Numbered from the stretch's first letter, positions 6 through 16,217 are shown. The stretch: DNA of 64,000 bases from Planctomycetota bacterium (GCA_013816485.1 JACDEI010000002.1:34322-98321); one strand, 5' to 3'. Notes: generated from the sequence alone by a model not told the origin. Made by a program: numbers and translations.

Positions 6-1319
6 ATGCGCTACTCCATCCTGCTTCTAATCATTGCTGTCACCGCCGCGTTGGCCGAACAGTCGCCGTACGAGGTTTTCCCGCCGGCGGAGCCGCCGTA
101 CCACCGCGTCCGCTACGTGGCTTCGACCATCCCTGGCGAACTGATCTTTGCGGTGAATTTCACCGCGTGGATTCCGCCCGGCGTCACGACGCTGCGAGGG
201 GTCATCGTTCATCAGCACGGCTGTGGTGAAGGTTCGTGCAAATCAGGGCTCACCGGCGCGTTCGATCTGCACTGGCAGGCGCTGGCGAAAAAACACGACT
301 GCGTGTTGCTGTCACCGGCCTACGAACAACCAGACAAAGCCAATTGCCAGATGTGGTGCGATCCGCGTAACGGCTCGGATGCTGCGTTTCGCCGTGCCTT
401 GGCCGACTTGGCCGCGCAGAGCAAACATTCCGAACTCACCAGTGTCCCGTGGGCACTGTGGGGCCATAGCGGTGGCGGTCATTGGGCCGGCGGCATGCTC
501 TTCCTCCATCCGGAACGCGTGGTTGCTGCGTGGTTGCGTTCGGGTGTGCCCGCGCTCCAGGCGGCGGACAACAAACCGAAACCCTATTCCATCCCGGATG
601 CGGCGTTGGCCGTGCCGATCATGTGCAATCTCGGCACCAAGGAGGGTGTCACGGTCAAGGATGGTCGCTTCGCCGGTGTGTGGCTGGGAGTCGAATCGTA
701 TTTCACCACCATGCGGGCAAAAGGCGCGCTGGTCAGCGTGTCGGTTGATCCGTTGACGAGCCATGAGTGCGGTAATCAACGATACTTGGCAATCCCCTGG
801 CTCGACGTGTGTCTGTCTGCGCGTCTTCCGGAAAAAATTGGCGAGCCATTGCGACCGATGCCTACTGACGATGTCTGGCTGGCTCCGCTCAATGGAACCG
901 TAGCCGTTTCGGCAGCGACCTTCACCGGCGATCGCGCCACCTCGGTGTGGTTGCCGAATCAGGCGCTGGCGAAAGCCTGGATGCAGTACGTCAACGACAC
1001 CGCCATCGTCGACCTCACGCCACCACCCGCGCCGACGAACTTGCGCGTCGCCGGCAACGAACTGACCTGGGAGGCGGAGGCCGATCTCGAAAGTGGCTTG
1101 GCCGGATTCATCATCGAACGCGATGGTCAGCCGCTGGCCAAGGTCCCTGAGCAGGGAAAAAATCCCTTCGGCCGTCCGCTGTTTCAGAATCTGCAATACA
1201 GCGACACCCCGAGCCAACCGCTGGTGCGGATGCAGTTCACCGACGACATGGCAGAAGCGGGCAAGGTGCACCAGTACCGCATCATCGCAGTCAACACCGT
1301 TGGGCTGACGTCCAAGTAG
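6..1319 (+). CDS. Secreted alpha/beta-hydrolase (esterase, PHB-depolymerase-like) with a C-terminal fibronectin-III-like domain
   Basis: N-terminal signal peptide [17 protein letters not shown]. Nucleophile-elbow motif GHSGG (G-x-S-x-G). The C-terminus ([37 protein letters not shown]) looks FN3-like. Confidence 0.55.
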
Positions 1320-1437: not shown

Positions 1438-1512
1438 TGGTGCCCAAGACAGGACTCGAACCTGCGACCTCCGCTTTACGAAAGCATTGCTCTACCACTG
1501 AGCTACTCGGGC
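1438..1512 (-). tRNA. tRNA-Thr (anticodon CGU)
   Basis: Hand-folded cloverleaf of 75 nt. 7-bp acceptor stem GCCCGAG/CUUGGGC. D-arm GCUC-AGUGGUA-GAGC. Anticodon loop UU-CGU-AA. T-arm GCAGG-UUCGAGU-CCUGU. Encoded CCA end. Confidence 0.85.
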
Positions 1513-1558: not shown

Positions 1559-1813
1559 TCAGCTCGCCTCGGCGGCGTGTGCGACGAGCTTCGGTCCTGG
1601 GCTGACCAGGGCCTGCATCCGTCGGCTGCCGCAGGTCGCCCGCTTGGGCGTGACCGTCAGGTAGTTGTTGGCGATCAGTTCGGCCATCGCCAGGGTCGCG
1701 CTGCGTTCGTCCAGGTGCAGGGTCTGGCGCAGGTGCTCGCGGATTTCTTCCTGTCCGACATCGAGGTCGAACTGATAGAAATCATTGATGGCCTTGATGA
1801 GGCTGACATCCAT
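1559..1813 (-). CDS. Small hypothetical protein (84 aa)
   Basis: ORF with plausible codon usage upstream of tRNA-Thr. No recognisable motif. Confidence 0.3.
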   Translation of the reverse strand: MDVSLIKAINDFYQFDLDVGQEEIREHLRQTLHLDERSATLAMAELIANNYLTVTPKRATCGSRRMQALVSPGPKLVAHAAEAS

Positions 1814-1992: not shown

Positions 1993-2454
1993 TCAGAGGG
2001 CGATCTTGAACACCAGTTTGCGGTACGAGACCGACGCCTCGCCGGGATTGCAACACGGCTTGTGTGCGTCTTCGGGCCAGAAGATCGCGAACTCCTGAGG
2101 GCGCACGACCAGCCGCGTCGGGATCGACACCGGCTGCTCAAAGAAACAGATGTCGTTGTCGGGTTTGAAATCCTCGAACAACGTGAGCGCGGCGCGCGGC
2201 ATCCACTCCATGATCTCGGGGCCTTTGAGATTGATCTGGATGTCGATGTAGCGGCGGTGCGATTCGAAACGCTTAAGCTGCGAGGCGATGGTCGGACCTG
2301 TTTCGACGATGACGAACAGCGCATCGCCCTGGAGCGCGTAACGACCATCCGGCTTGGCGAGGTTCCCAGGTTCCTGACACCAAGCGAAGGCGGCAGGGAA
2401 ACGCGGATGCAGACCGGTGTAGCGTTTGGCGTTGGCCAAGGAGTCGTGGATCAT
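1993..2454 (-). CDS. YhcH/YjgK/YiaL (DUF386, TabA/NanQ-like cupin) family protein
   Basis: Size and sequence are characteristic of the ~150-aa DUF386 beta-sandwich family. Its start (ATG ending at 2454) overlaps the ACP stop (2451), which suggests translational coupling. Confidence 0.7.
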   Translation of the reverse strand: MIHDSLANAKRYTGLHPRFPAAFAWCQEPGNLAKPDGRYALQGDALFVIVETGPTIASQLKRFESHRRYIDIQINLKGPEIMEWMPRAALTLFEDFKPDNDICFFEQPVSIPTRLVVRPQEFAIFWPEDAHKPCCNPGEASVSYRKLVFKIAL

Positions 2455-2723
2455 GAGGCGTTGGCGGCGGTGGGCGGCTGCGCGCGGATGAAGCTATCGA
2501 GCGCGGCGACGCTGGCGAACGCCTGCTTGCCGACCTCCATGTTGGGAATGCGCACGCCGTATTGGCGTTCGACGATCACCGCGAGTTCGAGCGCATCGAT
2601 GCTGTCGAGGCCAAGGCCTTCGCCGAACAGCGGAGCCTGCGGGTCGATGTCGGCTGGCGTGATGTCCTCAAGATTCAGACCGCTGATGAGGTGCTGGGCT
2701 AGACGCTGCTGGCTCTCGTTCAT
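2451..2723 (-). CDS. Acyl carrier protein
   Basis: 90 aa with the phosphopantetheine-attachment motif GLGLDSIDALEL. It is the C-terminal part of the long spurious ORF 2451..3521. The start ATG is at 2721-2723. Confidence 0.8.
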   Translation of the reverse strand: MNESQQRLAQHLISGLNLEDITPADIDPQAPLFGEGLGLDSIDALELAVIVERQYGVRIPNMEVGKQAFASVAALDSFIRAQPPTAANAS

Positions 2724-2799
2724 CGCGGCCACGGTAGTGCAGGACGGTTGCGCGCAAGGGCGGCAGAGGTCGAGCCATGACCAACCAGGGGCACTACGC

Positions 2800-4368
2800 T
2801 CAACCGGTCCACCATTCGGCATGTGCGGTATGCGGCGGACGGTCGGCCTCGATCCAGGCGACGAGTACGCCGGGGATCCCATCACGCAACAGGTCGTAGA
2901 CGAGTTCCCGCACCGCCTGGGGATCGGCACCATGCACACTGAACCCAGGGCCGCGCACACCCAGGCGGATACTGGCTTCACCGATGGGCGTGGTGGGCAG
3001 GGTGTAGGGGAACCGCTGGGGATCGACCGCGCCGACGCCCACCGCCTGATCGTGTAGGCGATCGGAGGCGGCCGAACCACTGGCGGTCGCCAACACGATC
3101 GCGCTGGCGCTCGGCAGGGGGCCAAGCAGATGTCCCAGTGCGACCAGCGCCCGGCAGGACAGGTCCATGCGTCCCCAGGTGGCATCGACGTGACCGAGCA
3201 CGCAGCGGGCGGATAGCCGTGGCAGCGTGTCGCCCTCACCTGGCTCGTTCCACGTACCGTTCTCCGCGCTGCCGTCGGCACGTTCACGCCGCCAGCCGCG
3301 GCCATCGAGCCGAACCCAGCTTGCCCGTCGTGGTGTCGTCGTCGACGACGATGGCTTTGCGGGAAGGTCACCCAACACCACGGCACCGTTGAGGCCGCCG
3401 AAGCCGGCGTTGGCGAGCAGCAGCGGACCAGCCGCGAGCGTATGCACACCCGGAGGCAGCACGGTGATCGCGCCGGCACATCCCGCTTGTTGCAGATTGG
3501 CGCAGCCGGGTGTGCGACCACGCCGCCGGATCACGCTCGCGAGCGCGAATTCGGCGATGCCGCAGGCGCCGAGGCTGTGCCCGAGCAGTCCCTTGAACGC
3601 GGTCACCGGCGTCGCGGGACAGACGCTGCGGTAGGCAAGGCTTTCGCTGTCGTCATTGTAGCGGGTGCCGGTGCCATGGGCGATCACCAGGGCGGGTTGT
3701 GCTGCGGCGGCGCGTGCCAGCGCAGCGTGCAACGTGCGTGCGAGTCCGCTGCCATCGCGGGTCGGCCCGGTGAGGTGATTAGCGTCCATGCCGCCCGCCC
3801 AACCCTGAAGGAAGAGGCCGTCACGGATTTCAGCGGTTTCGAGCACCACCGCGGCGACGAGTTCGCCCAGGCGCAGTCCGGCCCGGTGGGCATCGAAGGG
3901 ACGACACCGTGCGGGGTCGATGGCGCGCAAGGCGGCGAAGCCCTCGCTGATGAAATCGTCGATGCGATCGGCCCCGATCACCAGCACCCGGCGCCAGCGT
4001 CTAGCGAGGATGCCTCGCGCCGCCACGCCAAGCGCCAATGGTCCACTCGCGCATGCAGCGCTGACGGCGAAGCCTGGACAGGCGAAGGCCGCGGCGATGT
4101 GGGAGGCCAACCATGCGGGACCGCCAGCGCCCGTTCCGGTGGAGGCCCGCAGGTCAGCGCGCCAGCGCGGCAGATCGCCCTTGGTGGTGGCGAGGATCAC
4201 CTGGTCAGGTGAGTCCCCGCTCAGTGCTGCGCGCGCGACATGCAGTGCCGCGGTCAGCGGATCGCCCAGCAGTGGAGCGGGATCGCCGTTGCCGCCATCG
4301 AGTGCCGTTACGGTGCTTTCCAGGTCTCCATGCCCACTCAGTAGTGCTGTTCCAGCGATGCGCGGCAT
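2800..4368 (-). CDS. Beta-ketoacyl-ACP synthase family protein, atypical: short KS core plus a C-terminal extension of ~190 aa resembling a Cys-less KS N-terminal half
   Basis: KS catalytic motifs ACASG (Cys), HGTGT (His) and GHSLGACG (His). The C-terminal KS-end motif FGGLNGAVVLG lies near residue 325. The remainder contains GVRGPGFSV-HGAD, which resembles the KS segment that precedes the active-site Cys but lacks the Cys. Confidence 0.65.
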   Translation of the reverse strand: MPRIAGTALLSGHGDLESTVTALDGGNGDPAPLLGDPLTAALHVARAALSGDSPDQVILATTKGDLPRWRADLRASTGTGAGGPAWLASHIAAAFACPGFAVSAACASGPLALGVAARGILARRWRRVLVIGADRIDDFISEGFAALRAIDPARCRPFDAHRAGLRLGELVAAVVLETAEIRDGLFLQGWAGGMDANHLTGPTRDGSGLARTLHAALARAAAAQPALVIAHGTGTRYNDDSESLAYRSVCPATPVTAFKGLLGHSLGACGIAEFALASVIRRRGRTPGCANLQQAGCAGAITVLPPGVHTLAAGPLLLANAGFGGLNGAVVLGDLPAKPSSSTTTPRRASWVRLDGRGWRRERADGSAENGTWNEPGEGDTLPRLSARCVLGHVDATWGRMDLSCRALVALGHLLGPLPSASAIVLATASGSAASDRLHDQAVGVGAVDPQRFPYTLPTTPIGEASIRLGVRGPGFSVHGADPQAVRELVYDLLRDGIPGVLVAWIEADRPPHTAHAEWWTG

Positions 4369-4480
4369 CGCCGCAGGGTCGTGTCACCAGCGCTGGTCGC
4401 AAGCCGTCCTTGCCCGCTGTCGCTGTCTAGCACGGTGCGCCATCGCCTTTTGCCACGAGAATGGTAGCACCCAGGACCAC

Positions 4481-6064
4481 ATGAGCGTGCCCGAGCCCTC
4501 CACCAGCGATATCGCGGCCCCAGTCGCACCGGGCACCGCGCCGGTGATCGCCTGGCGCGCTGGACCGGCGCTTCCCGTCACCCGCGCGACCACCGTTCCG
4601 TCCTTGATGGCGGAATGCCTGCATCGTTTCCCCACCGCGACGGTCATCAACGACGGTGGGCGTTCAGCGACCTGGCGTGAACTCGACGAATGGTCCGCAC
4701 GTCTGGCATCGGCCTGGGCCAAGGATCTGCCGCGTGGCGGCCGGTGTGCGATCCTGGTGGGCAATGGACTGCCGCACTTGCTCGCCGAACTCGCCTGCTG
4801 GCGTCTGGGAGCGATCGCCGCACCGATCTTCCACGGCTTCGGTCCTCAGCGGATCGCCGCCTTGCTCGCACGCCTGGAACCGCAGGTGACGCTGGTCGAT
4901 GATCCGGCCCTGGCGCACAGCGCTGCGGGTGGAGTGCGGCAGGAAACCTCGAGCGAACTCTGGCATCATGCGACAACGCATGCGGTGGATCACCGCGAGC
5001 GTGCGGTCACGGGCAGCGATGCCTGCCTGATCCAGTTCACCAGCGGCAGCACCGGCATGCCCCGTGGCGTGGTGTTGACGCATGACAACCTCGCCAGCCA
5101 GCAAGCGGCCTTCGCGCTGCAATGGCCAGAGGTCGGGCCGGGCGATCGGCTCGCGGCCTACCTGCCATGGCATCACAGCTTCGGCGGTCTGGCGGAGCGC
5201 CTGTGGTCGTTGTGCCGTGGTGCTGAGCTGACGGTGGTGCCGGGAGGTGGCCGCGATCGCCAGCACCTGCTCGCCACCGTTCGTGCGGTCAAGCCAACCG
5301 TTTTTCTCAGCGTGCCCAAGATCCATGCCGTGATGGTGGAGGAACGCCTGTTCCATCGCGATACGGTGCGCTGGGTGTTCACCGCGGGCGCGCCGTTGTC
5401 GGACGACCTGCGGACGTGGTACGCGGCCGCCGGGATTCCTGTGTGCGAAGGTTGGGGGCTGACCGAGACCAGTCCAAGCTGCACGCTTACGCGCCCTGGA
5501 CGTGCGACTTCCGGCGTGGTCGGTCATCCGATCGCCGGCGTCAGCGTCGGCGTGCGGCGCAGCGATGGACACATCCTGGTGCGTGGCCCCAACGTCATGG
5601 CTGGATATTTCCGTCAGCCGACCACGACCTTGTGCGACGGCGTGCTCGACACCGGTGATCTGGGAACGTGGAGCGAAGACGGTCTGTGCCTACGTGGGCG
5701 CTCGGACCATCAGCTCAAACTCGCCAACGGCGAGAAGCTCGGCGCGGCAGAGATCGAAGCCGCTCTGCTCGCCCATCCGGCAATCCTGCATGCGGTAGTC
5801 GGAGCCGAACCGGAATTGCTGGTGATCGTGGAGGTGCGTGACGGCACCTGTCGCGATGAGGTGCTGGCGGTTGTTGATGCCGTGAACGCGTCGCAGGCGG
5901 TACCTTATCAACGCATCCGCGGCATCTACGCCATCGCGCAGCGCATGTGCGTCGAGGACGGACACCTGACTGCGTCGCTCAAAGTCTCGCGTGGACAGGT
6001 GCTGGAGAGCTTCCGCCGCTGGCGCACTGAGGGTGGATCGCAGTTCGTTTGCTACCGCGGTTGA
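4481..6064 (+). CDS. AMP-dependent synthetase/ligase (fatty-acyl-AMP/CoA ligase family)
   Basis: AMP-binding motif FTSGSTGMPRGV, plus GWGLTET and the usual downstream Gly-rich signature. True start is MSVPEP at 4481. The ORF-track N-terminal extension back to 3920 overlaps the KS gene on the opposite strand and is spurious. Confidence 0.8.
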   Translation: MSVPEPSTSDIAAPVAPGTAPVIAWRAGPALPVTRATTVPSLMAECLHRFPTATVINDGGRSATWRELDEWSARLASAWAKDLPRGGRCAILVGNGLPHLLAELACWRLGAIAAPIFHGFGPQRIAALLARLEPQVTLVDDPALAHSAAGGVRQETSSELWHHATTHAVDHRERAVTGSDACLIQFTSGSTGMPRGVVLTHDNLASQQAAFALQWPEVGPGDRLAAYLPWHHSFGGLAERLWSLCRGAELTVVPGGGRDRQHLLATVRAVKPTVFLSVPKIHAVMVEERLFHRDTVRWVFTAGAPLSDDLRTWYAAAGIPVCEGWGLTETSPSCTLTRPGRATSGVVGHPIAGVSVGVRRSDGHILVRGPNVMAGYFRQPTTTLCDGVLDTGDLGTWSEDGLCLRGRSDHQLKLANGEKLGAAEIEAALLAHPAILHAVVGAEPELLVIVEVRDGTCRDEVLAVVDAVNASQAVPYQRIRGIYAIAQRMCVEDGHLTASLKVSRGQVLESFRRWRTEGGSQFVCYRG

Positions 6065-6119: not shown

Positions 6120-6193
6120 TGGAGCGGGTGAAGGGAATCGAACCCTCGTATGTTGGATGGGAACCAACCGCTCTACCATTGAGCTACACCCGC
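6120..6193 (-). tRNA. tRNA-Gly (anticodon CCC)
   Basis: Hand-folded 74-nt cloverleaf. Acceptor GCGGGUG/CACCCGC. Anticodon stem GUUGG/CCAAC with loop UU-CCC-AU. T-loop UUCGAUU. Discriminator U then CCA. Confidence 0.85.
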
Positions 6194-6325: not shown

Positions 6326-6403
6326 TGGTCGGGGCGACAGGATTTGAACCTGCGACCTCTGCGTCCCGAACGCAACGCTCTAGCCAAGCTGAGCTACGCC
6401 CCG
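6326..6403 (-). tRNA. tRNA-Pro (anticodon CGG)
   Basis: Hand-folded 78-nt cloverleaf. Acceptor CGGGGCG/CGCCCCG; the C1:G72 pair is typical of bacterial tRNA-Pro. Anticodon loop UU-CGG-GA. T-loop UUCAAAU. Discriminator A then CCA. Confidence 0.85.
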
Positions 6404-6480: not shown

Positions 6481-6801
6481 TCACTTGGTATCAGTGGCCC
6501 TGAGCTTGTCAATTGCAGGCAACGGCGGCGGCGCGATCTCACCCGGAGTGGCGTACTTCAAGCGCTCGCGCGCGACCAACTCGACAACGTAGGGATCCTT
6601 GCGGCGCAGACCATCGAGCACGGCTTCCTGCTGTGCGATGTCGTGCTCCAGGCGCACGGTTTCCTGACGCTCCTGCTGCGCGGTCTGCTTGACCAGGGCG
6701 ACTTCGCTTTCGCGTTCGCGCAGATGCATCGAAAAGCTGATCACCACCACGGTGGCGAACACCGCATGCACCACGACCAGGGGACCACGCGCGAGGTTCA
6801 T
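6481..6801 (-). CDS. ftsB: Septum formation initiator FtsB/DivIC family protein
   Basis: N-terminal TM helix, coiled coil, and the conserved DPYVVELVARERLKYATPGEI motif. Confidence 0.7.
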   Translation of the reverse strand: MNLARGPLVVVHAVFATVVVISFSMHLRERESEVALVKQTAQQERQETVRLEHDIAQQEAVLDGLRRKDPYVVELVARERLKYATPGEIAPPPLPAIDKLRATDTK

Positions 6802-8312
6802 GAACGGGCCTCCACCGCGCTGAGTTTGTCGTCGAACGCCGCCGCTGCCGCTTGTGGCATGCGGGCGAGCACCGGAGCGAGGGCTTGATAGACCTCGGTG
6901 GCGGCTTTACGCGGCTGATAGGCGATCCGCTGACCGACCATCTTCGAGCACGCTTCTGGCACGTTCTTGTAAAGACCGACCGAAGAACTGGCGAGAATCG
7001 CCGCGCCCGTCGCGGCGCATTCGGCGCCTGGCACCGCGAAGATCTGCCGGTCGAGCGCGTCCGCGAGGATCTGGCACCACAGGGTGTTGCCGGCACCGGA
7101 ACCGACCACCAGCACCTGTTCGGGTTCGCGCTTCATGTCACTCAGGGCATCGAGGGCGGAGCGTAGCGACATCGCGCCGCTTTCGAGCACAGCACGCACC
7201 AGGTGGCCACGTCCGTGTTGCCGGCCCAATCCAACAAAGCCGGCCATCTTGGGCGACACGCGGGACTGGAGGTGGAGCAGTCCTTCGGATCCCGGTGGGA
7301 TTTCCGCAGCGAGTTCGGCGAGCGGCTCCAACGGATCACGCTGTGCGCGTTTCGCCTGCATGACTTCGCTGGCGAACACGTGCTGCTGCAACCAGTCGAG
7401 CGGCTCTGGCCCGGCGAGATCGGACTGCGCCAATGCCCAGGTGCCAGCAAGCGTGTGGCAGGTGGAGATGAGGCGGTTGCTCGGGTCGCGCACGGCATCG
7501 CCGGTTGGTGCGAAGATGCCGCCAACACCACCGAGTTCAGCCATCACGCCACCCGGAGCAAGCACGCCCGCCGCCACGGCTGCGGATGAAGCGTGACCGC
7601 CACCGGTGATCACGGGAGTTCCCGACTGCAAACCGGCTTCTCGCGCGGCGGTGCTGGTGACGCGACCGCTGATCAGTTGTCCGCTGCTGATGGTCGGCAA
7701 CCACGCGGGATTGATGTCGAGCAGGCTGAGCAGTTGCTTCGACCACGCGCGGGTCTTGGGATTGAACAGCAAGGTGGCAGCGGCGTCGGAAGCGTCGGTG
7801 ACCAGGGTTTCGCACAGGCGGAAGCGCAGGAAATCCTTGGGGCTGAGCACCACCCCGAGATCATGCCACACGCGTTTCTCATTCTCGCGCAACCACAGGA
7901 GCTTCACCGCGGTTGCGCCGCCATGCGCGACACCGCTTGCGAGATTCAGCAGATTACGCGCACCGACCGTGCGATTGAGCAGGTCGATCTGCGATTCAGC
8001 TCGTGGATCGGTCCCCAGGCTGCTGGTGCACAGGACCTTGCCATCCTTGGACAGCGCCACCATGCCGTCGCTGTCACCGGTGACGCCGATGCAGCGGATC
8101 TGATCGGCTTTCAATTCAGCGCGACGCAGGATCTCCTTGATGCCGGTGCGGGCCGCCCGCCACCAATCCTGGGGATCGAACAATTGATCGGTCCCGCCAC
8201 CATAGGCGCGGTGCAACGACGCGACTTGTTGGCCGTCACCAGAAAGTACGACTAAACCCAAGCCGGTGCGGGCGACGTCGATACCAAGAAAGTAGGCTGT
8301 AGGTGAGGGCAT
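6798..8312 (-). CDS. FGGY-family carbohydrate kinase (xylulokinase/glycerol-kinase-like)
   Basis: N-terminal FGGY signature YFLGIDVARTGLGLVVL and overall architecture of about 500 aa. The 4-nt overlap with ftsB points to an operon. Confidence 0.7.
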   Translation of the reverse strand: MPSPTAYFLGIDVARTGLGLVVLSGDGQQVASLHRAYGGGTDQLFDPQDWWRAARTGIKEILRRAELKADQIRCIGVTGDSDGMVALSKDGKVLCTSSLGTDPRAESQIDLLNRTVGARNLLNLASGVAHGGATAVKLLWLRENEKRVWHDLGVVLSPKDFLRFRLCETLVTDASDAAATLLFNPKTRAWSKQLLSLLDINPAWLPTISSGQLISGRVTSTAAREAGLQSGTPVITGGGHASSAAVAAGVLAPGGVMAELGGVGGIFAPTGDAVRDPSNRLISTCHTLAGTWALAQSDLAGPEPLDWLQQHVFASEVMQAKRAQRDPLEPLAELAAEIPPGSEGLLHLQSRVSPKMAGFVGLGRQHGRGHLVRAVLESGAMSLRSALDALSDMKREPEQVLVVGSGAGNTLWCQILADALDRQIFAVPGAECAATGAAILASSSVGLYKNVPEACSKMVGQRIAYQPRKAATEVYQALAPVLARMPQAAAAAFDDKLSAVEARS

Positions 8313-11597: not shown

Positions 11598-14500
11598 TCA
11601 GACGGTCTTGAAGCCGCCCGAAGGTCCGCCGCTGGCGTTGTTGTCGGTCAGGCGGCGGATGCGGGCCTTCAGGCCGGCATTCTCCTCCTTCAGCTTGCGG
11701 TTGTCGTCGCGCACGGTCGCGGCGGCATCGCGCAGTTCGACCATCTCCTTCTGGACCTTCTCCTTCGAGTTGCCGACATCCTTGCGCTTCTCGTCGAGCT
11801 GGGACTTGAGCTGGGCGGTCATGCTGTTGGCGTCGGCCAGATCGGCTTCGATCTGCCGCAGCTTCTCGCGCAGGCTGTCGCGTTCGCCGTGCAGGTGCTT
11901 CAGCTCGCGCGCCAGGTCGGTGGTCTTGGCGGTGGCTCCGGCATGGGCACCGAAGACTGTCTCCAGTTCCTTGATGCGATCGTTGGCTTGGCTGATCTCC
12001 TTGGTCAGTGCCGATACCTGCGCTTCTAGTCCCTTGCTGTCGGCGCGCTGTTCGGCGAGATCCTTGAGTTCGCTATCCTTCTTGTCGATCACCTGATCGC
12101 GTTCGGCCAAGCGCTTGGTCAACTCATCGCGTTGGGCCTTGAGCCGTGCGTCGGCCGCCTGGGCACGTTCCAGGGCCTCGCTGAGCTGGCTTTCGATCTC
12201 GGCGCGGTTCGCCCGTTCCTTCTCAATCTCTTGGCGCAGGCGATCGATGTCGCTGCTCATATGGCCGGAAGAGGCACCATCGCGCGCCTGGTAATCCGCC
12301 ACCTCGGCCTGGGCCAGACGCAATTGCTCGCGCAGTTGCTTGAGCTCGGCCATGGCATCGTCGCGGTTGCGGCGTTGTTCCATCACTTGGTTGAGCAGTT
12401 CCGACTGCTCGGCCTTAGCCTTCTCGATGCCGTCAGCGAGGTTCTGAAGCTGATGGTCGCGATCGACCACCGCAGCGCGCAAGGCAGCAAGTTCGTTGTT
12501 GAGGGCGTCCTCGCTGCGTTTGGTCGCAGACAGTTCGCCACGAGCCTGTTCCATGTGTTCGGCCAAGGTCTGGAGACGGTCCTTGAGCGCGTGAACGTAG
12601 GCTTGGCCAGCACTGGCGAGCTGCTCCGGGCCAGCCGCACGGGCGAGGTCGAGCTTCTGCCCGGCTTTACTCAGCGGATCAGCCTGATCGGCATCGGTCA
12701 GTGCGCGGGCGACGGTGGGCGAGGCGTCCTGACGGTTGGTCAGTGAGCGCAAGGCCTGGACCAACTGCGTCTGGGTGTGCTCCGCGGCGTCGCCACGCTG
12801 ATGTTGTTCGCCCAGTTCGCGCAGCAGGCGTTCCTGTTCGCGTTGGGCCTCGACCAGTTTGGTGCTGGTCTGTTGCAGCCGGCGATCTTGTTCCTCGACG
12901 CGCTGGGCGGCGACATCGAGTTCGGCCTTGATGCTCGCGACCTCGCCGCGGGTGTTGGTGAGCTCCTGCACCTTAGCTGACAGGTCCTTGCCCTGCATGG
13001 TGAGTTCGTGGCGCACAGCCTTGACTTCGGCCTGGCTGCTGCGCAACGACGCTTGTTGTTCGTCGACGTGCTTCTGTGCGGTGGCGACCTCGCCGCGGAG
13101 TTTTTCGAGCTGGCCCTTGAGCGAATCCTGGTCCTCCTGCGCGCGCTTGAAGCTGGTGGTCATCTGCGCACGGCGGGCGAGCAAGGCCTCGGCGAGCTTC
13201 CGTCCGCTTTCGGCGAGTTGCAGGCTGAGGTTCTCGGGAATGCTGACCGCGTCCTCGCCTTCGTCCGGCAGTTGCGACAGCGCCAGTTCCAGGTCGACGC
13301 GTTTGTCTTCGACTTCTCCGGTGTGTTGGTCCTTCTCCATTGAGGCGAGGGTCGAGAGTGCTTCGGCCAGTTGGCGGTTGGCGGTCTCGGCGGACAGCGT
13401 GCGGCCCTGCAAACGTGTAAGCAGCGCCTCGTTTTCGCCGGAGCTGCGCTTGATCGCTTCCAGTTCCTGGACGGTGCGCTCCTTCTGCTGCGTCAGGAGG
13501 TTGATGACCTCCTTGCCGCTGGCAGCCATCTCGTCGCGTTCGCCTTCAAGGGTGACGGCGCGTTCGTTGGCTTCCTTGAGCTGCCACTTGAGCGCGTTGG
13601 TATCCTGCTGCAGTCGTTCAGCCTGCTGTGCCAATGCCTGACGGCGCTGGGCGAGCTGGGCGACGCCGGCGGCGACTTGACGGCTGACGGTCGCAGGATC
13701 GACCGGCTGGTTGCTGGACGGGGTGTCTTCCAGCGACAAGGCGAGGTCCGCGATGGTTTCGGCCAGTTCAGGGTCGTCCTTGGCGGCGCTCACCAGTTCG
13801 GTGGCGACCGCACGGTCGGCTTCGCTCTGCGCCGTCGCCGCGGCGCTCAACGCTGCGTGTTCGCCGCGGGTCTTGGCCAGATCGGCATCAGCATCGCGCA
13901 GACGCTGTTCCATGGTGGTGAGCTGCGAGAAGGCCTTGCCACGTTCCGCTTCGAGCACGGTGCGCCGGCTGTTGGCTTCCTGCGCCTGGTTGCGCATGAG
14001 GTCGAGGTCGGTGCGCGCACGGCTGAGATCGCGTTCCAGTTCCTGGACGTTCTGCTGGGCCTCGGTGAGGCTCTTGCTGAGCTTCTGCTGTTCGCCGTGC
14101 AGATTGGCGCCACGCGTTTCGGCTTCCTGCGCCTTGGAGCGCAGACCGTCAAGTTCGCCGCGCAGGCGTTTGTTCTCTTCGTCGAGATCCTGTTTGCGGC
14201 GTGATAGTCCGGTCACGGCTTCGCGCAGCGCCGGTACCAGATTGTCATCGTCGCCGGCATCGCTGGCGAGAGCGAGGTCGGTCACCGAATCGGCGAGTTG
14301 GTCATCGCCCTTGGCGGCACGTACCACTTCCTGCGCCATCTCGCGTTCGGCGCGGCGTTGGGCTTCGCCACGCGCTTGGACGGCGGCGACTTCACCCTTG
14401 GCCTTGGCGACGTCATCCTCGAGCGAGCGGATCTTCTGCTGGGCTTGGCCGATCTGACTGGCGAGACGACCGCGTTCCTCATCGAGACGCTTGAGATCGG

Positions 14501-16217
14501 TCTGCGAGGGGGCCTTGGCCAACTGCTCGCGCAGGTGCTGGATGACCTGCTGGGTGGCATTGCCGACCTGCGCCGGTTCCTGTGCGTCATCGAGGGCGCG
14601 GTTGAGTTGCACCACGCTGGCGTCGAACTTCTCGTCGCCTTGTTGTTCGGGAGAAATGTCGGCGCGGGTTTTTGCCAGCGCACGGACCTCTTCAGCCACC
14701 GCCTTCTCACGCCCCTGGGCGGCGGTGAGGGCCTGCGATTTCTCCTTCATCAGACGCGCGAGTGCCGCGCTGTCCTCGCGCAGACGGGCGATCAGCGCTT
14801 CGTCGGTGGAATCCTTCGCTGGCGGGGCCATGCGCACGCCAGCCTCGTCACCGAGCAGACGATCCATCAGGACGAGTTGCTCGCTGATGATCGGCTTCAC
14901 GTCGCCGCCACCCTTGATGTTCTTGATGATCTCATCTGCCTTGGCGGTGCTTTCCGCAAGCGGCGCGTCTTCGTCCACCAGCGCGGTGGGCACGTGTTGC
15001 TTGTCGGCCTTCGCGCGTTCGGCGATGGTTCCGAGCACCTGCATGTAGGCTTTGCGCACCTCGCCGAGTTCCTCCTCGGCGGTGTTGCGCGCTTCGTCGG
15101 CCTGGTCGGCCATCTCCTTGAGCGCGACCATACGCTGACGGCCACGCGCCAACACCGCGGCGAGTTCGCGTGCCACGCTGGTGGTGCCGGCGATGACTTC
15201 GGCGGGAGCTCCGCTCTCGGTCGAAGGAACGGCGGAGATGGCATCCTCGCGGCCGGCGGCGACGCCGAGCGCCTGTTTGCCGGTATGTTCGAGCTGTTGT
15301 GCTTCGCTGCGCGCGCCGTTCATCGCTTCGACCAGTCCTTCGACCGGTTCGGCGACGTCCACGGCGGCAAGGCTGCCGCCCTTGAGCTGTTCGAGCAGGG
15401 CGAGATCGCCTTCCAGCAGGTTCATGCGTGGATCGGTGGCCAAACGCTCGGTCTGCTTCTGCGCGCTCTGGGCGATGCCGCGCAGACGCTGCAAGTCGTT
15501 CGACAGGGTGTCGATAACCTTCGCGCCGACATCGTAGTCGTGATAAAATTGTTCTTCATCCGGCGCGTCTTCGGGAACCGGATTCTCGTCGACATGGCGT
15601 CCGCCGTAGAGCTGGCTGTCCAAACCGAGCACGCCCTCGACCAGGGTGTTGGCACGCAGCATGTAGTTCTTCAGCGCCTGCTTGTGCTTGTCGGCCAGTT
15701 CCTCCTTCTCGGCGAGGGTGGTGCTGGCGAGTGCGCGGTTGTTGGCGAGCTGGTCTTCGATCTCGTATTTGTCCTGCTGCAACTCTTCGATCATCTGCTC
15801 GCGTTCGGCGAGCGCTTTCTTGAGGCTGTCGATCGCTTCAGTGGCTTGTTCGGCGCTGGCGGCGCTCGACTGGGACTCGGCGACCTTGGCCATGGCCTTG
15901 TCGAGGTCGGCCTTCATACGGTCGCGCTCGCCCTGGGTGTCCTGCTCGCGCTTGATGCGTTTGGCCAGCTCTTCCTGAACCTTCTTCAGCATCTCCTCTT
16001 TTTCTTTGTCGCTGATGCTGTCGACCTTGCCCGCCATGTGGCGGGTGATCACCGTATTCACCCAATCCATCAGCTGCTTCTCGGTGATGACCTTGAGCTT
16101 CTTGCTCTGGCCCTTCGTTCGCACCAGTTCCGCGGCGGTGGTGCTTTCGCCCAGGCCCGCCAGGGATTGCGACAGGTCTTCCATCGGCTGCTCGGGTTTC
16201 ATCGGCTTCGCAGGCAT
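11598..16217 (-). CDS. Giant (1539 aa) coiled-coil protein with no recognisable enzymatic domain
   Basis: One uninterrupted ORF of 4.6 kb. The composition is dominated by E/A/L/R/Q/K heptad-like repeats after a short globular N-terminal region of about 60 aa. No TM helix and no Walker motifs. Confidence 0.8.
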   Translation of the reverse strand: MPAKPMKPEQPMEDLSQSLAGLGESTTAAELVRTKGQSKKLKVITEKQLMDWVNTVITRHMAGKVDSISDKEKEEMLKKVQEELAKRIKREQDTQGERDRMKADLDKAMAKVAESQSSAASAEQATEAIDSLKKALAEREQMIEELQQDKYEIEDQLANNRALASTTLAEKEELADKHKQALKNYMLRANTLVEGVLGLDSQLYGGRHVDENPVPEDAPDEEQFYHDYDVGAKVIDTLSNDLQRLRGIAQSAQKQTERLATDPRMNLLEGDLALLEQLKGGSLAAVDVAEPVEGLVEAMNGARSEAQQLEHTGKQALGVAAGREDAISAVPSTESGAPAEVIAGTTSVARELAAVLARGRQRMVALKEMADQADEARNTAEEELGEVRKAYMQVLGTIAERAKADKQHVPTALVDEDAPLAESTAKADEIIKNIKGGGDVKPIISEQLVLMDRLLGDEAGVRMAPPAKDSTDEALIARLREDSAALARLMKEKSQALTAAQGREKAVAEEVRALAKTRADISPEQQGDEKFDASVVQLNRALDDAQEPAQVGNATQQVIQHLREQLAKAPSQTDLKRLDEERGRLASQIGQAQQKIRSLEDDVAKAKGEVAAVQARGEAQRRAEREMAQEVVRAAKGDDQLADSVTDLALASDAGDDDNLVPALREAVTGLSRRKQDLDEENKRLRGELDGLRSKAQEAETRGANLHGEQQKLSKSLTEAQQNVQELERDLSRARTDLDLMRNQAQEANSRRTVLEAERGKAFSQLTTMEQRLRDADADLAKTRGEHAALSAAATAQSEADRAVATELVSAAKDDPELAETIADLALSLEDTPSSNQPVDPATVSRQVAAGVAQLAQRRQALAQQAERLQQDTNALKWQLKEANERAVTLEGERDEMAASGKEVINLLTQQKERTVQELEAIKRSSGENEALLTRLQGRTLSAETANRQLAEALSTLASMEKDQHTGEVEDKRVDLELALSQLPDEGEDAVSIPENLSLQLAESGRKLAEALLARRAQMTTSFKRAQEDQDSLKGQLEKLRGEVATAQKHVDEQQASLRSSQAEVKAVRHELTMQGKDLSAKVQELTNTRGEVASIKAELDVAAQRVEEQDRRLQQTSTKLVEAQREQERLLRELGEQHQRGDAAEHTQTQLVQALRSLTNRQDASPTVARALTDADQADPLSKAGQKLDLARAAGPEQLASAGQAYVHALKDRLQTLAEHMEQARGELSATKRSEDALNNELAALRAAVVDRDHQLQNLADGIEKAKAEQSELLNQVMEQRRNRDDAMAELKQLREQLRLAQAEVADYQARDGASSGHMSSDIDRLRQEIEKERANRAEIESQLSEALERAQAADARLKAQRDELTKRLAERDQVIDKKDSELKDLAEQRADSKGLEAQVSALTKEISQANDRIKELETVFGAHAGATAKTTDLARELKHLHGERDSLREKLRQIEADLADANSMTAQLKSQLDEKRKDVGNSKEKVQKEMVELRDAAATVRDDNRKLKEENAGLKARIRRLTDNNASGGPSGGFKTV

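Follow-up and report, generated by a model that had tools for sequence, protein, structure and literature searches.

A four-gene cassette of Planctomycetota that probably descends from an aryl-polyene-type gene cluster

Four neighboring genes were analyzed at positions 1993-6064 of a 64,000-nt stretch of DNA from a Planctomycetota bacterium (GCA_013816485.1 JACDEI010000002.1:34322-98321; the whole stretch is hereafter called the window). They encode an AMP-binding ligase, a ketosynthase (KS), an acyl carrier protein (ACP) and a protein of the DUF386 (YhcH) family. We consider this locus to be a reduced initiation cassette that descended from an aryl-polyene (APE)-type cluster, a cluster of the highly reducing type II polyketide synthase (PKS) kind, and we put the probability of this reading at about 0.55. 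The identities of the genes, their architecture, their conservation and their ancestry were established directly. Few bacterial biosynthetic gene clusters are as widespread as those of the APE type. The descent of the cassette from such a cluster was missed by the initial annotation of the locus, which had described a small lipid-tailoring cluster.

The four genes and their products

All four open reading frames (ORFs) are intact (Table 1). The ligase ORF spans 3920-6064, and its real start at 4481 (+) gives a protein of 527 aa, equal to the gene call in a public contig of 98% identity. The stop codon of the ACP gene (TGA, 2453-2451) and the start codon of the DUF386 gene (ATG, 2454-2452) overlap in an ATGA, and the divergent KS and ligase genes, which start at 4368 and 4481, are separated by a gap of 112 nt. 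The four ORFs, the overlap and the gap had all been given by the initial annotation and were borne out in the sequence. We calculated dN/dS against L007, an orthologous locus with 77-90% amino-acid identity across the four genes. The values were 0.15 for the ligase, 0.17 for the KS, 0.07 for the ACP and 0.10 for the DUF386 gene. Thus, all four genes are under purifying selection and are not chance ORFs.

With 83 bits, the ACP exceeded the cut-off of 70 for NCBIfam NF006617. We compared it directly with the APE cluster of E. coli CFT073 (locus L093), and found 60% identity to ApeE and 35% to ApeF. It has the ApeE-specific LED (residues 18-20), F33, GEG (34-36), Ser41, A44 and the N-x-E loop, motifs that were taken from the description of Acinetobacter baumannii ApeE (PMC12624758), and its insertions relative to ApeF are ApeE-type. 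Judged from its sequence, the cassette ACP is an ApeE-type starter ACP. In A. baumannii, ApeE is a starter ACP onto which an adenylating enzyme loads p-hydroxybenzoate, and it keeps this aromatic starter in a surface pocket; ACPs of this type differ markedly from those of fatty acid synthase (FAS) by a blocked hydrophobic cavity and by the surface pocket (PMC12624758). This argues against a plain fatty acid as the starter, which the initial annotation had assumed.

Pfam and NCBIfam models covered only residues ~72-335 of the 522-aa KS protein. It scored 103 bits against the FabF model TIGR03150 (cut-off 494) and 35 bits against the FabB model (cut-off 630). Being so far below the FabF equivalog cut-off, it is not FabF. 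No FabG-, FabD- or AcpP-like gene was found in the window by tblastn with Ape- and Fab-like queries, and the possibility that the KS is simply the FabF of a broken fab operon, which the initial annotation had raised, was dropped. A search of 5.8 billion proteins returned ~110 full-length homologues (~520 aa) with identities down to 43%, and every homologue carrying a source name came from Planctomycetota. Cys106, His231, His264 and Lys259 were invariant in an alignment of 26 of these homologues, and the set is predicted to form the active site of a decarboxylating KS. The protein is closer to E. coli ApeO (33% identity, profile score 142 bits) than to ApeR (29%, 127 bits).

The C-terminal ~150 residues of the protein are equally conserved, with the motifs WGRMD, DPQRFPYTLP, GEASIR and GPG, and they have no cysteine at the active-site position. 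No Pfam or NCBIfam model, PF13723 included, matched this domain even at relaxed E-values. Its profile matched the chain-length factor (CLF) Iga12 (6kxd_B, E = 1.5e-7) on the N-terminal thiolase half, and it also matched the N-terminal thiolase half of FabF-type enzymes. By sequence, ApeC (6qsp_B) was matched at E = 0.14, and E. coli ApeC was not found by the domain profile. The initial annotation had suggested a structural comparison with APE or type II PKS KS-CLF pairs, among others. The AlphaFold2 model of the whole protein (predicted local distance difference test, pLDDT, 94.5; predicted template modeling score, pTM, 0.95) had its best Protein Data Bank (PDB) match in the fused KS-CLF didomain of PfaC (6RIW, TMq 0.76). 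The C-terminal domain modeled alone (pLDDT 73) best matched Xenorhabdus doucetiae ApeC (6QSP_B, E = 3e-6), and the next matches were the chains 7F28_C/A, of 198-203 aa. 7F28 is presumably the entry for ApeO-ApeC of A. baumannii, although the search output did not carry that name. ApeC is the half-size CLF of APE synthesis, and its single thiolase fold is its hallmark (PMC8358021). Because of the profile match to Iga12, the PfaC-like model of the whole chain and the ApeC-like model of the C-terminal domain, the 522-aa protein is best described, at the level of sequence and model, as an ApeO-like KS fused in one chain to a half-size, inactive CLF. The "atypical ketosynthase" of the initial annotation is indeed a KS, but the CLF fused to it had been overlooked. 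We also considered a circular permutation, in which the C-terminal domain would be the displaced N-terminal half, and rejected it because the N-terminal half is present and compact in both the alignment and the model.

In APE/flexirubin-like loci of other phyla, the domain profile found stand-alone ORFs of ~200-260 aa that directly follow the KS gene, and those sampled matched only the N-terminal half of PF00109. It also found a few other fused versions. Fusions of a KS and a half-size CLF (~460-650 aa) were seen outside Planctomycetota, e.g. in Spartobacteria and Lentisphaerae (Table 1). The KS-CLF fusion may have arisen more than once.

All NCBIfam matches of the ligase were far under their cut-offs. 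The best was a long-chain-fatty-acid-CoA ligase subfamily (170 bits; cut-off 476), and no fatty-acyl-AMP ligase (FAAL) model was among the top matches. The best solved relative was malonyl-CoA synthetase 4FUQ (103 bits), and other solved relatives were feruloyl-, oxalyl- and succinylbenzoate-CoA ligases. As for FAALs, the structure 3PBK matched in two pieces with 69 bits and ranked behind many CoA ligases, and so the FAAL identity given by the initial annotation was rejected. The stretch between GWGLTETS and DTGDLG, where we presume the FAAL-specific insertion to lie (placed without an explicit alignment), is compact in the 527-aa protein. By these comparisons, the ligase appears to be a generic enzyme of the ANL superfamily, neither FAAL nor ApeH-like. 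Outside Planctomycetota, its nearest relatives carry source annotations as long-chain acyl-CoA synthetases. Within Planctomycetota we found ~115 orthologues, and the size and divergence of this family follow those of the KS family. In most loci with upstream DNA, the ligase and KS genes are divergent neighbors (no ligase gene was seen in L020 and L088). The protein is 52% identical to the sole ligase of a full APE-like cluster, L086, and in L087 an orthologous ligase is fused to an ApeO-like KS (P0313, 904 aa). This fusion supports a direct functional link between the ligase and the condensing enzyme. By analogy, the ligase is presumed to be a starter-acid:ACP ligase.

The DUF386 protein scored 126 bits against PF04074 (cut-off 26.5) and 94.5 bits against the NanQ equivalog NF040884 (cut-off 160), and it was therefore rejected as a NanQ orthologue. 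Among solved structures, Salmonella YjgK (9JRR) and Haemophilus YhcH are closest to it. Six residues build the metal site of YjgK (PMC12517248). Their equivalents, E64, H66, D71, Q73, H131 and K150, are invariant in 27 DUF386 homologues, and the metal site is predicted to be intact. The homologues form a discrete, Planctomycetota-specific subfamily at identities of at least 50%, beyond which identity drops to at most 44%. We inspected the genomic context of three homologues (P0160, P0169 and P0212). P0160, an abundant member of the subfamily, lies in the same cassette, and this variant has index entries in 120 blocks of the assembly collection. The outgroup P0212 (42% identical) adjoins a gene of the DHDPS/NanA family and transporters, which is a classical sugar-acid context. 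No nan-type genes were found beside the DUF386 gene of the cassette. The only established activity in the YhcH family is the metal-assisted ring opening of N-acetylneuraminate (PMC8141875). The link to sugars or sialic acid proposed by the initial annotation came from the family name only, and it was not borne out by the NanQ model or by the neighboring genes. A search of the available literature on YhcH together with ACP and ketosynthase found no linking paper.

Distribution and ancestry of the cassette

A ligase gene divergent from KS, ACP and DUF386 genes was found in L001, L005, L006, L007, L008, L012, L015, L084 and L089, with KS identities of 52-98%. The cassette is also present in L010, L011 and L021, which are truncated contigs. 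The ACP is kept in 11 of the 12 DUF386-linked Planctomycetota loci. In the twelfth, L021, the ACP gene is absent and the DUF386 gene starts 9 nt after the KS gene. Two loci, L012 and L015, keep all four genes, and the flank with the FGGY kinase seen in other loci is absent from them. The four-gene unit was thus recovered in 11 loci, so that the finding by which the initial annotation would have been refuted, a lack of synteny in other genomes, did not turn up.

DUF386 was found in none of the loci with KS identities of 43-50%. In L014, L086, L087 and L002, the ligase-KS(-ACP) core lies amid a full APE-like cluster, and L003 and L088 (KS identity 43-50%) showed few ape-like genes or none. The full clusters carry an ApeO-like KS, a PF13723 ApeC-like protein and ApeQ-, ApeP-, ApeI- and ApeK-like genes, and further a lipid A-type acyltransferase, a GT2 glycosyltransferase, an MMPL protein, a methyltransferase and an ApeF-like second ACP. 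In these metagenome-assembled genomes of Planctomycetota, the full clusters hold two KS-CLF systems, one made of the ApeO-like KS and the separate PF13723 ApeC-like protein, and the other being the fused KS-CLF.

In the 12 DUF386-linked loci, no gene for a ketoreductase (KR; ApeQ), ApeI/ApeP, ApeR, acyltransferase, glycosyltransferase, MMPL or LolA-like protein was found within 10 kb, and no other ape-like genes were found anywhere in the window. The simplest history would be that an APE-type cluster in an ancestor of these Planctomycetota was reduced to its initiation core and that DUF386 was recruited to it.

Intergenic region and surroundings of the cassette

The cassette is bracketed by genes for tRNA-Thr, tRNA-Gly and tRNA-Pro, and its GC content was 0.5-9 points above that of the flanks in 9/9 genomes examined, with genome GC contents of 54-69%. 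Although tRNA flanks and higher GC might suggest a recent horizontal transfer, we rejected this explanation because the GC excess was present in all nine genomes and the neighborhood of tRNA and FGGY genes is conserved. Since the excess holds whatever the genome GC and this neighborhood has been kept, the cassette seems to be an old resident rather than a recent island.

In the divergent intergenic region, CTTGCGA (minus strand, 4403-4397) sits 28 nt upstream of the ATG of the KS gene. A CTTGC(G/C)(A/C) motif, exact or nearly so, was found in the same place, ~28 nt before the KS start, in eight orthologous loci (L001, L005-L008, L012, L015 and L089). In the closest relatives, another stretch, GCAAAAGGCGATGG-like, is conserved closer to the ligase gene. 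Both the motif and the GCAAAAGGCGATGG-like stretch could be a promoter element or an operator. A scan for the sigma-70 consensus found no promoter, a terminator scan gave matches at chance level only, and an Rfam scan of the window found the three tRNAs only and no regulatory RNA.

Downstream of DUF386, at a distance of 179 nt, there is an 84-aa ORF without a family match. It was found, with 62-78% identity, in the closest relatives only (L007 and L011) and is absent from more distant cassettes. A Pfam scan of this ORF and of the protein upstream of an unlinked DUF386 gene in L090 gave nothing useful. In L001, a phage-type integrase and small phage-like genes (a DnaB-like helicase and a helix-turn-helix protein) lie just past the DUF386 end of the cassette. 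The tRNA-Thr gene of the window stands at the end equivalent to the integrase side of L001 (the tRNA scan covered the window, not L001). This suggests that the DUF386 end of the cassette is an integration hotspot.

A 437-aa protein encoded near the start of the window has an apparent N-terminal signal sequence by eye and a weak likeness to extracellular esterases of the polyhydroxybutyrate-depolymerase type (34 bits, far below the cut-off). Its gene also adjoins the cassette in L007. On the other side, an FGGY carbohydrate kinase gene is coupled at its end, by a 4-nt overlap, to a downstream gene for a DivIC/FtsB-like protein with a faint Pfam match on record, and both genes accompany the cassette in several genomes. 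Farther away, a 1539-aa ORF with a high content of Glu, Ala, Lys and Gln looks coiled-coil-like by eye and has no Pfam match on record; it coincides with a strong AT skew (~-0.3) over 11.5-16 kb. An Aas-like protein of 1182 aa, with an acyl-[ACP]--phospholipid O-acyltransferase and an acyl-ACP synthetase domain, scored 909 bits against NF006386 (cut-off 1221). It is the second AMP-binding enzyme of the window and is unrelated to the cassette ligase.

Table 1. Coordinates of the cassette, of other features of the window and of features in related loci (positions are those of the window unless a locus is named)
Feature	Position	Strand	Family match
DUF386 (YhcH/YjgK/YiaL) protein, predicted jelly-roll metalloprotein, 153 aa	1993-2454	-	PF04074, E=1.5e-36
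Predicted ApeE-type starter ACP, 90 aa, phosphopantetheine site Ser41	2451-2723	-	PP-binding, E=9e-10
KS-CLF protein, 522 aa	2800-4368	-	Pfam ketoacyl-synt N + C domains
KS half, residues 1-335, ApeO-like, Cys106/His231/His264/Lys259	3364-4368	-	
Linker and half-size cysteine-less CLF-like domain, residues 336-522, conserved core 373-522	2803-3363	-	
ANL-superfamily adenylate-forming ligase, 527 aa	4481-6064	+	PF00501, E=1.8e-64
Divergent intergenic region, 112 nt	4369-4480		
437-aa protein	6-1319	+	
tRNA-Thr	1438-1512		
84-aa ORF	1559-1813	-	
tRNA-Gly	6120-6193		
tRNA-Pro	6326-6403		
DivIC/FtsB-like protein, 106 aa	6481-6801	-	
FGGY carbohydrate kinase	6798-8312	-	
1539-aa ORF	11598-16217	-	
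Aas-like protein, 1182 aa	28651-32199	-	
Integrase and phage-like genes, L001	14078-21521		
Complete APE-like cluster, L014	1-12100		
Complete APE-like cluster, L086	2285-9767		
Complete APE-like cluster, L087	1-12558		
Fused KS and half-size CLF, L024	294-2219		
Fused KS and half-size CLF, L025	9755-11575		
Fused KS and half-size CLF, L065	169-1548		
Fused KS and half-size CLF, P0357, P0359, P0375, P0386			

Proposed pathway and alternative explanations

We infer the following pathway, in which the direct loading of the ACP, the starter, the number of extensions, the product and the role of DUF386 are all proposals. The ligase would adenylate a carboxylic acid starter, probably bulky, aromatic or otherwise lipophilic, and would transfer the acyl group to Ser41 of the ApeE-type ACP. 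The KS-CLF protein would then take the acyl group onto Cys106 and condense it with malonyl-ACP, presumably loaded by the housekeeping FabD, to give a beta-ketoacyl-ACP. The fused half-size CLF would line the opposite side of the substrate tunnel, the role that ApeC plays for ApeO. These two steps are modeled on characterized systems. Loading is suggested by the analogy with ApeH/ApeE and AmcH/AmcB and by the ligase-KS fusion, and condensation by the intact active site and the ApeC-like structure of the CLF half. The scheme of the initial annotation, in which an acid is activated, loaded on a private ACP and extended by a dedicated KS, is in line with the homology of the cassette to APE initiation.

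The fate of the beta-keto product was considered by elimination, because the cassette has no ketoreductase, dehydratase (DH), thioesterase or acyltransferase. Either the DUF386 metalloenzyme, which is translationally coupled and is the last conserved partner left, would process or release it, by hydrolysis, decarboxylation or cyclisation of a metal-bound 1,3-dicarbonyl, or the intermediate would go to the housekeeping fatty-acid enzymes. A release or tailoring role for DUF386 is put forward tentatively. More doubtful is the full form of this idea, that DUF386 might be a new ACP-dependent metal hydrolase, decarboxylase or cyclase acting on beta-ketoacyl-ACP, which would be the first non-sugar function of a YhcH protein and would lead to a new small polyketide or lipid (possibly a signal or an envelope component) in widespread uncultured Planctomycetota.

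Three known systems resemble the core of the cassette. For APE synthesis we used ApeH, ApeE and ApeO-ApeC of E. coli CFT073, X. doucetiae and A. baumannii as the reference. The cassette resembles APE initiation in its ApeE-type ACP, with the same motifs, in a KS nearest to ApeO, in a half-size CLF partner with one thiolase fold whose best structural match is ApeC, in the adenylating enzyme alongside, and in having distant orthologues within full APE-like clusters. Unlike the APE system, it has its KS and CLF in one polypeptide, with the CLF half outside PF13723. Its ligase comes from another ANL lineage than ApeH. No KR, DH, thioesterase, acyltransferase, glycosyltransferase, MMPL or LolA-like gene is nearby, and DUF386 is added. 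Because of the ligase lineage, the missing genes for reduction, transfer and export, the KS-CLF fusion and the added DUF386, the cassette is not itself an APE cluster.

The AmcH-AmcB-AmcF-AmcG sets of cispentacin and coronafacic-acid synthesis carry out a single C2 extension on an ACP, and their "minimal type" clusters show that four such parts can suffice for a complete unit (PMC10698177). Like them, the cassette combines an adenylate-forming acyl-ACP ligase, a dedicated ACP, a KS and a reduced CLF-like partner. However, this partner is fused to the KS, there is no sign of a 2-oxoglutarate starter or a five-membered ring, and the scores were too low for membership (AmcF model 96 bits, cut-off 325; AmcB model 33 bits, cut-off 80; no AmcG or AmcH model among the matches). 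The Amc/Cfa systems were kept as a mechanistic analogy only. PfaC of polyunsaturated fatty acid synthase, the best match of the whole chain, also has KS and CLF on one chain as an intramolecular pseudo-dimer, but the identity is 14%, and the CLF of PfaC is full-size and part of a multidomain megasynthase, whereas that of the cassette is half-size and in a stand-alone protein.

DUF386 can be compared with NanQ/YhcH and with YjgK/TabA, with which it shares the Pfam family, the fold family and the six residues of the YjgK metal site. Unlike NanQ, it stays under the equivalog cut-off, belongs to a Planctomycetota-specific subfamily, is translationally coupled to an ACP and is not in a sialic-acid operon.

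Some of our results weigh against descent from an APE-type cluster with an initiation function. The best NCBIfam family of the KS was PRK09185, whose score of 132 bits is below the cut-off of 407. The ligase matched E. coli ApeH over 74 residues only (29 bits, E = 0.003) and is not an ApeH orthologue. Its sequence does not give away the substrate. Its nearest outgroups are named long-chain acyl-CoA synthetases, and its best solved relative is a malonyl-CoA synthetase. P0169, a member of the DUF386 subfamily (56% identical), lies in an unrelated context, so the link of DUF386 with the KS cassette is not obligatory. Finally, parts of the genome beyond the 64 kb and the one 21.6-kb neighboring locus (10-kb flanks) that were examined could hold other ape-like genes.

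The last point bears on an alternative that we consider unlikely, in which the cassette has been separated from the rest of a complete APE-like pathway. ApeO/ApeC, the KR, the DHs, the acyltransferases and the exporter would be encoded elsewhere, the product would be an ordinary APE-type lipid of the outer membrane and DUF386 would be a bystander. Relatives at 43-50% identity do have this core inside full APE-like clusters, and our inspection covered the window and the 10-kb flanks of related loci. Against this, the 12 DUF386-linked loci and the window were free of other ape-like genes over the ranges given above, and the loss of ape-like neighbors coincides exactly with the gain of DUF386.

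It is also improbable, in our view, that the cassette is an alternative primer module for the housekeeping FAS, although this comes close to the "unusual envelope lipid" of the initial annotation. The beta-ketoacyl-ACP would then be elongated by FabG/FabZ/FabI/FabF to omega-substituted fatty acids and envelope lipids, and DUF386 would be unrelated or accessory. Such a route would agree with a cassette that has no KR, DH or release enzyme of its own and with a ligase whose outgroups are named long-chain acyl-CoA synthetases. But a hand-over to FAS is less obvious for an ApeE-type ACP, which is unlike FAS ACPs (PMC12624758) and whose motifs are conserved here, and the tight coupling with DUF386 would be unexplained.

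Still less likely is that DUF386 is an openase or anomerase of sugar acids like E. coli NanQ, either unrelated to the KS cassette or preparing a keto-sugar-acid starter for the ligase, the latter corresponding to the acylated sugar of the initial annotation. N-acetylneuraminate ring opening is the sole characterized activity of the family (PMC8141875), the metal site is conserved, a 56%-identical member of the subfamily lies away from any KS, and the wider neighborhood includes an FGGY sugar kinase and an aldose epimerase. However, the protein falls below the NanQ cut-off, and its gene has no aldolase, transporter or nan gene as a neighbor, in contrast to the outgroup P0212. The ATGA overlap with the ACP gene persists, the adjacency to the KS persists despite changed flanks or the absence of the ACP, and the FGGY gene lies beyond the divergent ligase gene and two tRNA genes. 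Decay of a lost cluster to a remnant without coherent function could account for the absence of most ancestral cluster genes, but we regard it as very improbable given the dN/dS of 0.07-0.17 in all four genes, the invariant catalytic and metal-site residues and the retention of the cassette down to 52% KS identity, with the P0160 variant in as many as 120 blocks of the collection.

An initiation cassette derived from an APE-type cluster is thus the reading that we prefer. The anatomy and ancestry of the cassette are now clear, and no long-standing question is resolved by them. The locus shows an APE-type pathway cut down to a self-contained starter module, with KS and CLF in one chain, and it ties DUF386/YhcH to carrier-protein chemistry, a link that appears to be unreported. 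As the cassette is small (~4 kb, four genes), its reconstitution in vitro or in a heterologous host should be feasible. If it is true that DUF386 acts on acyl-ACP, it would represent a new class of enzyme for the tailoring of polyketides or lipids. The cassette also offers a handle on the metabolism of Planctomycetota that are known only from metagenomes.

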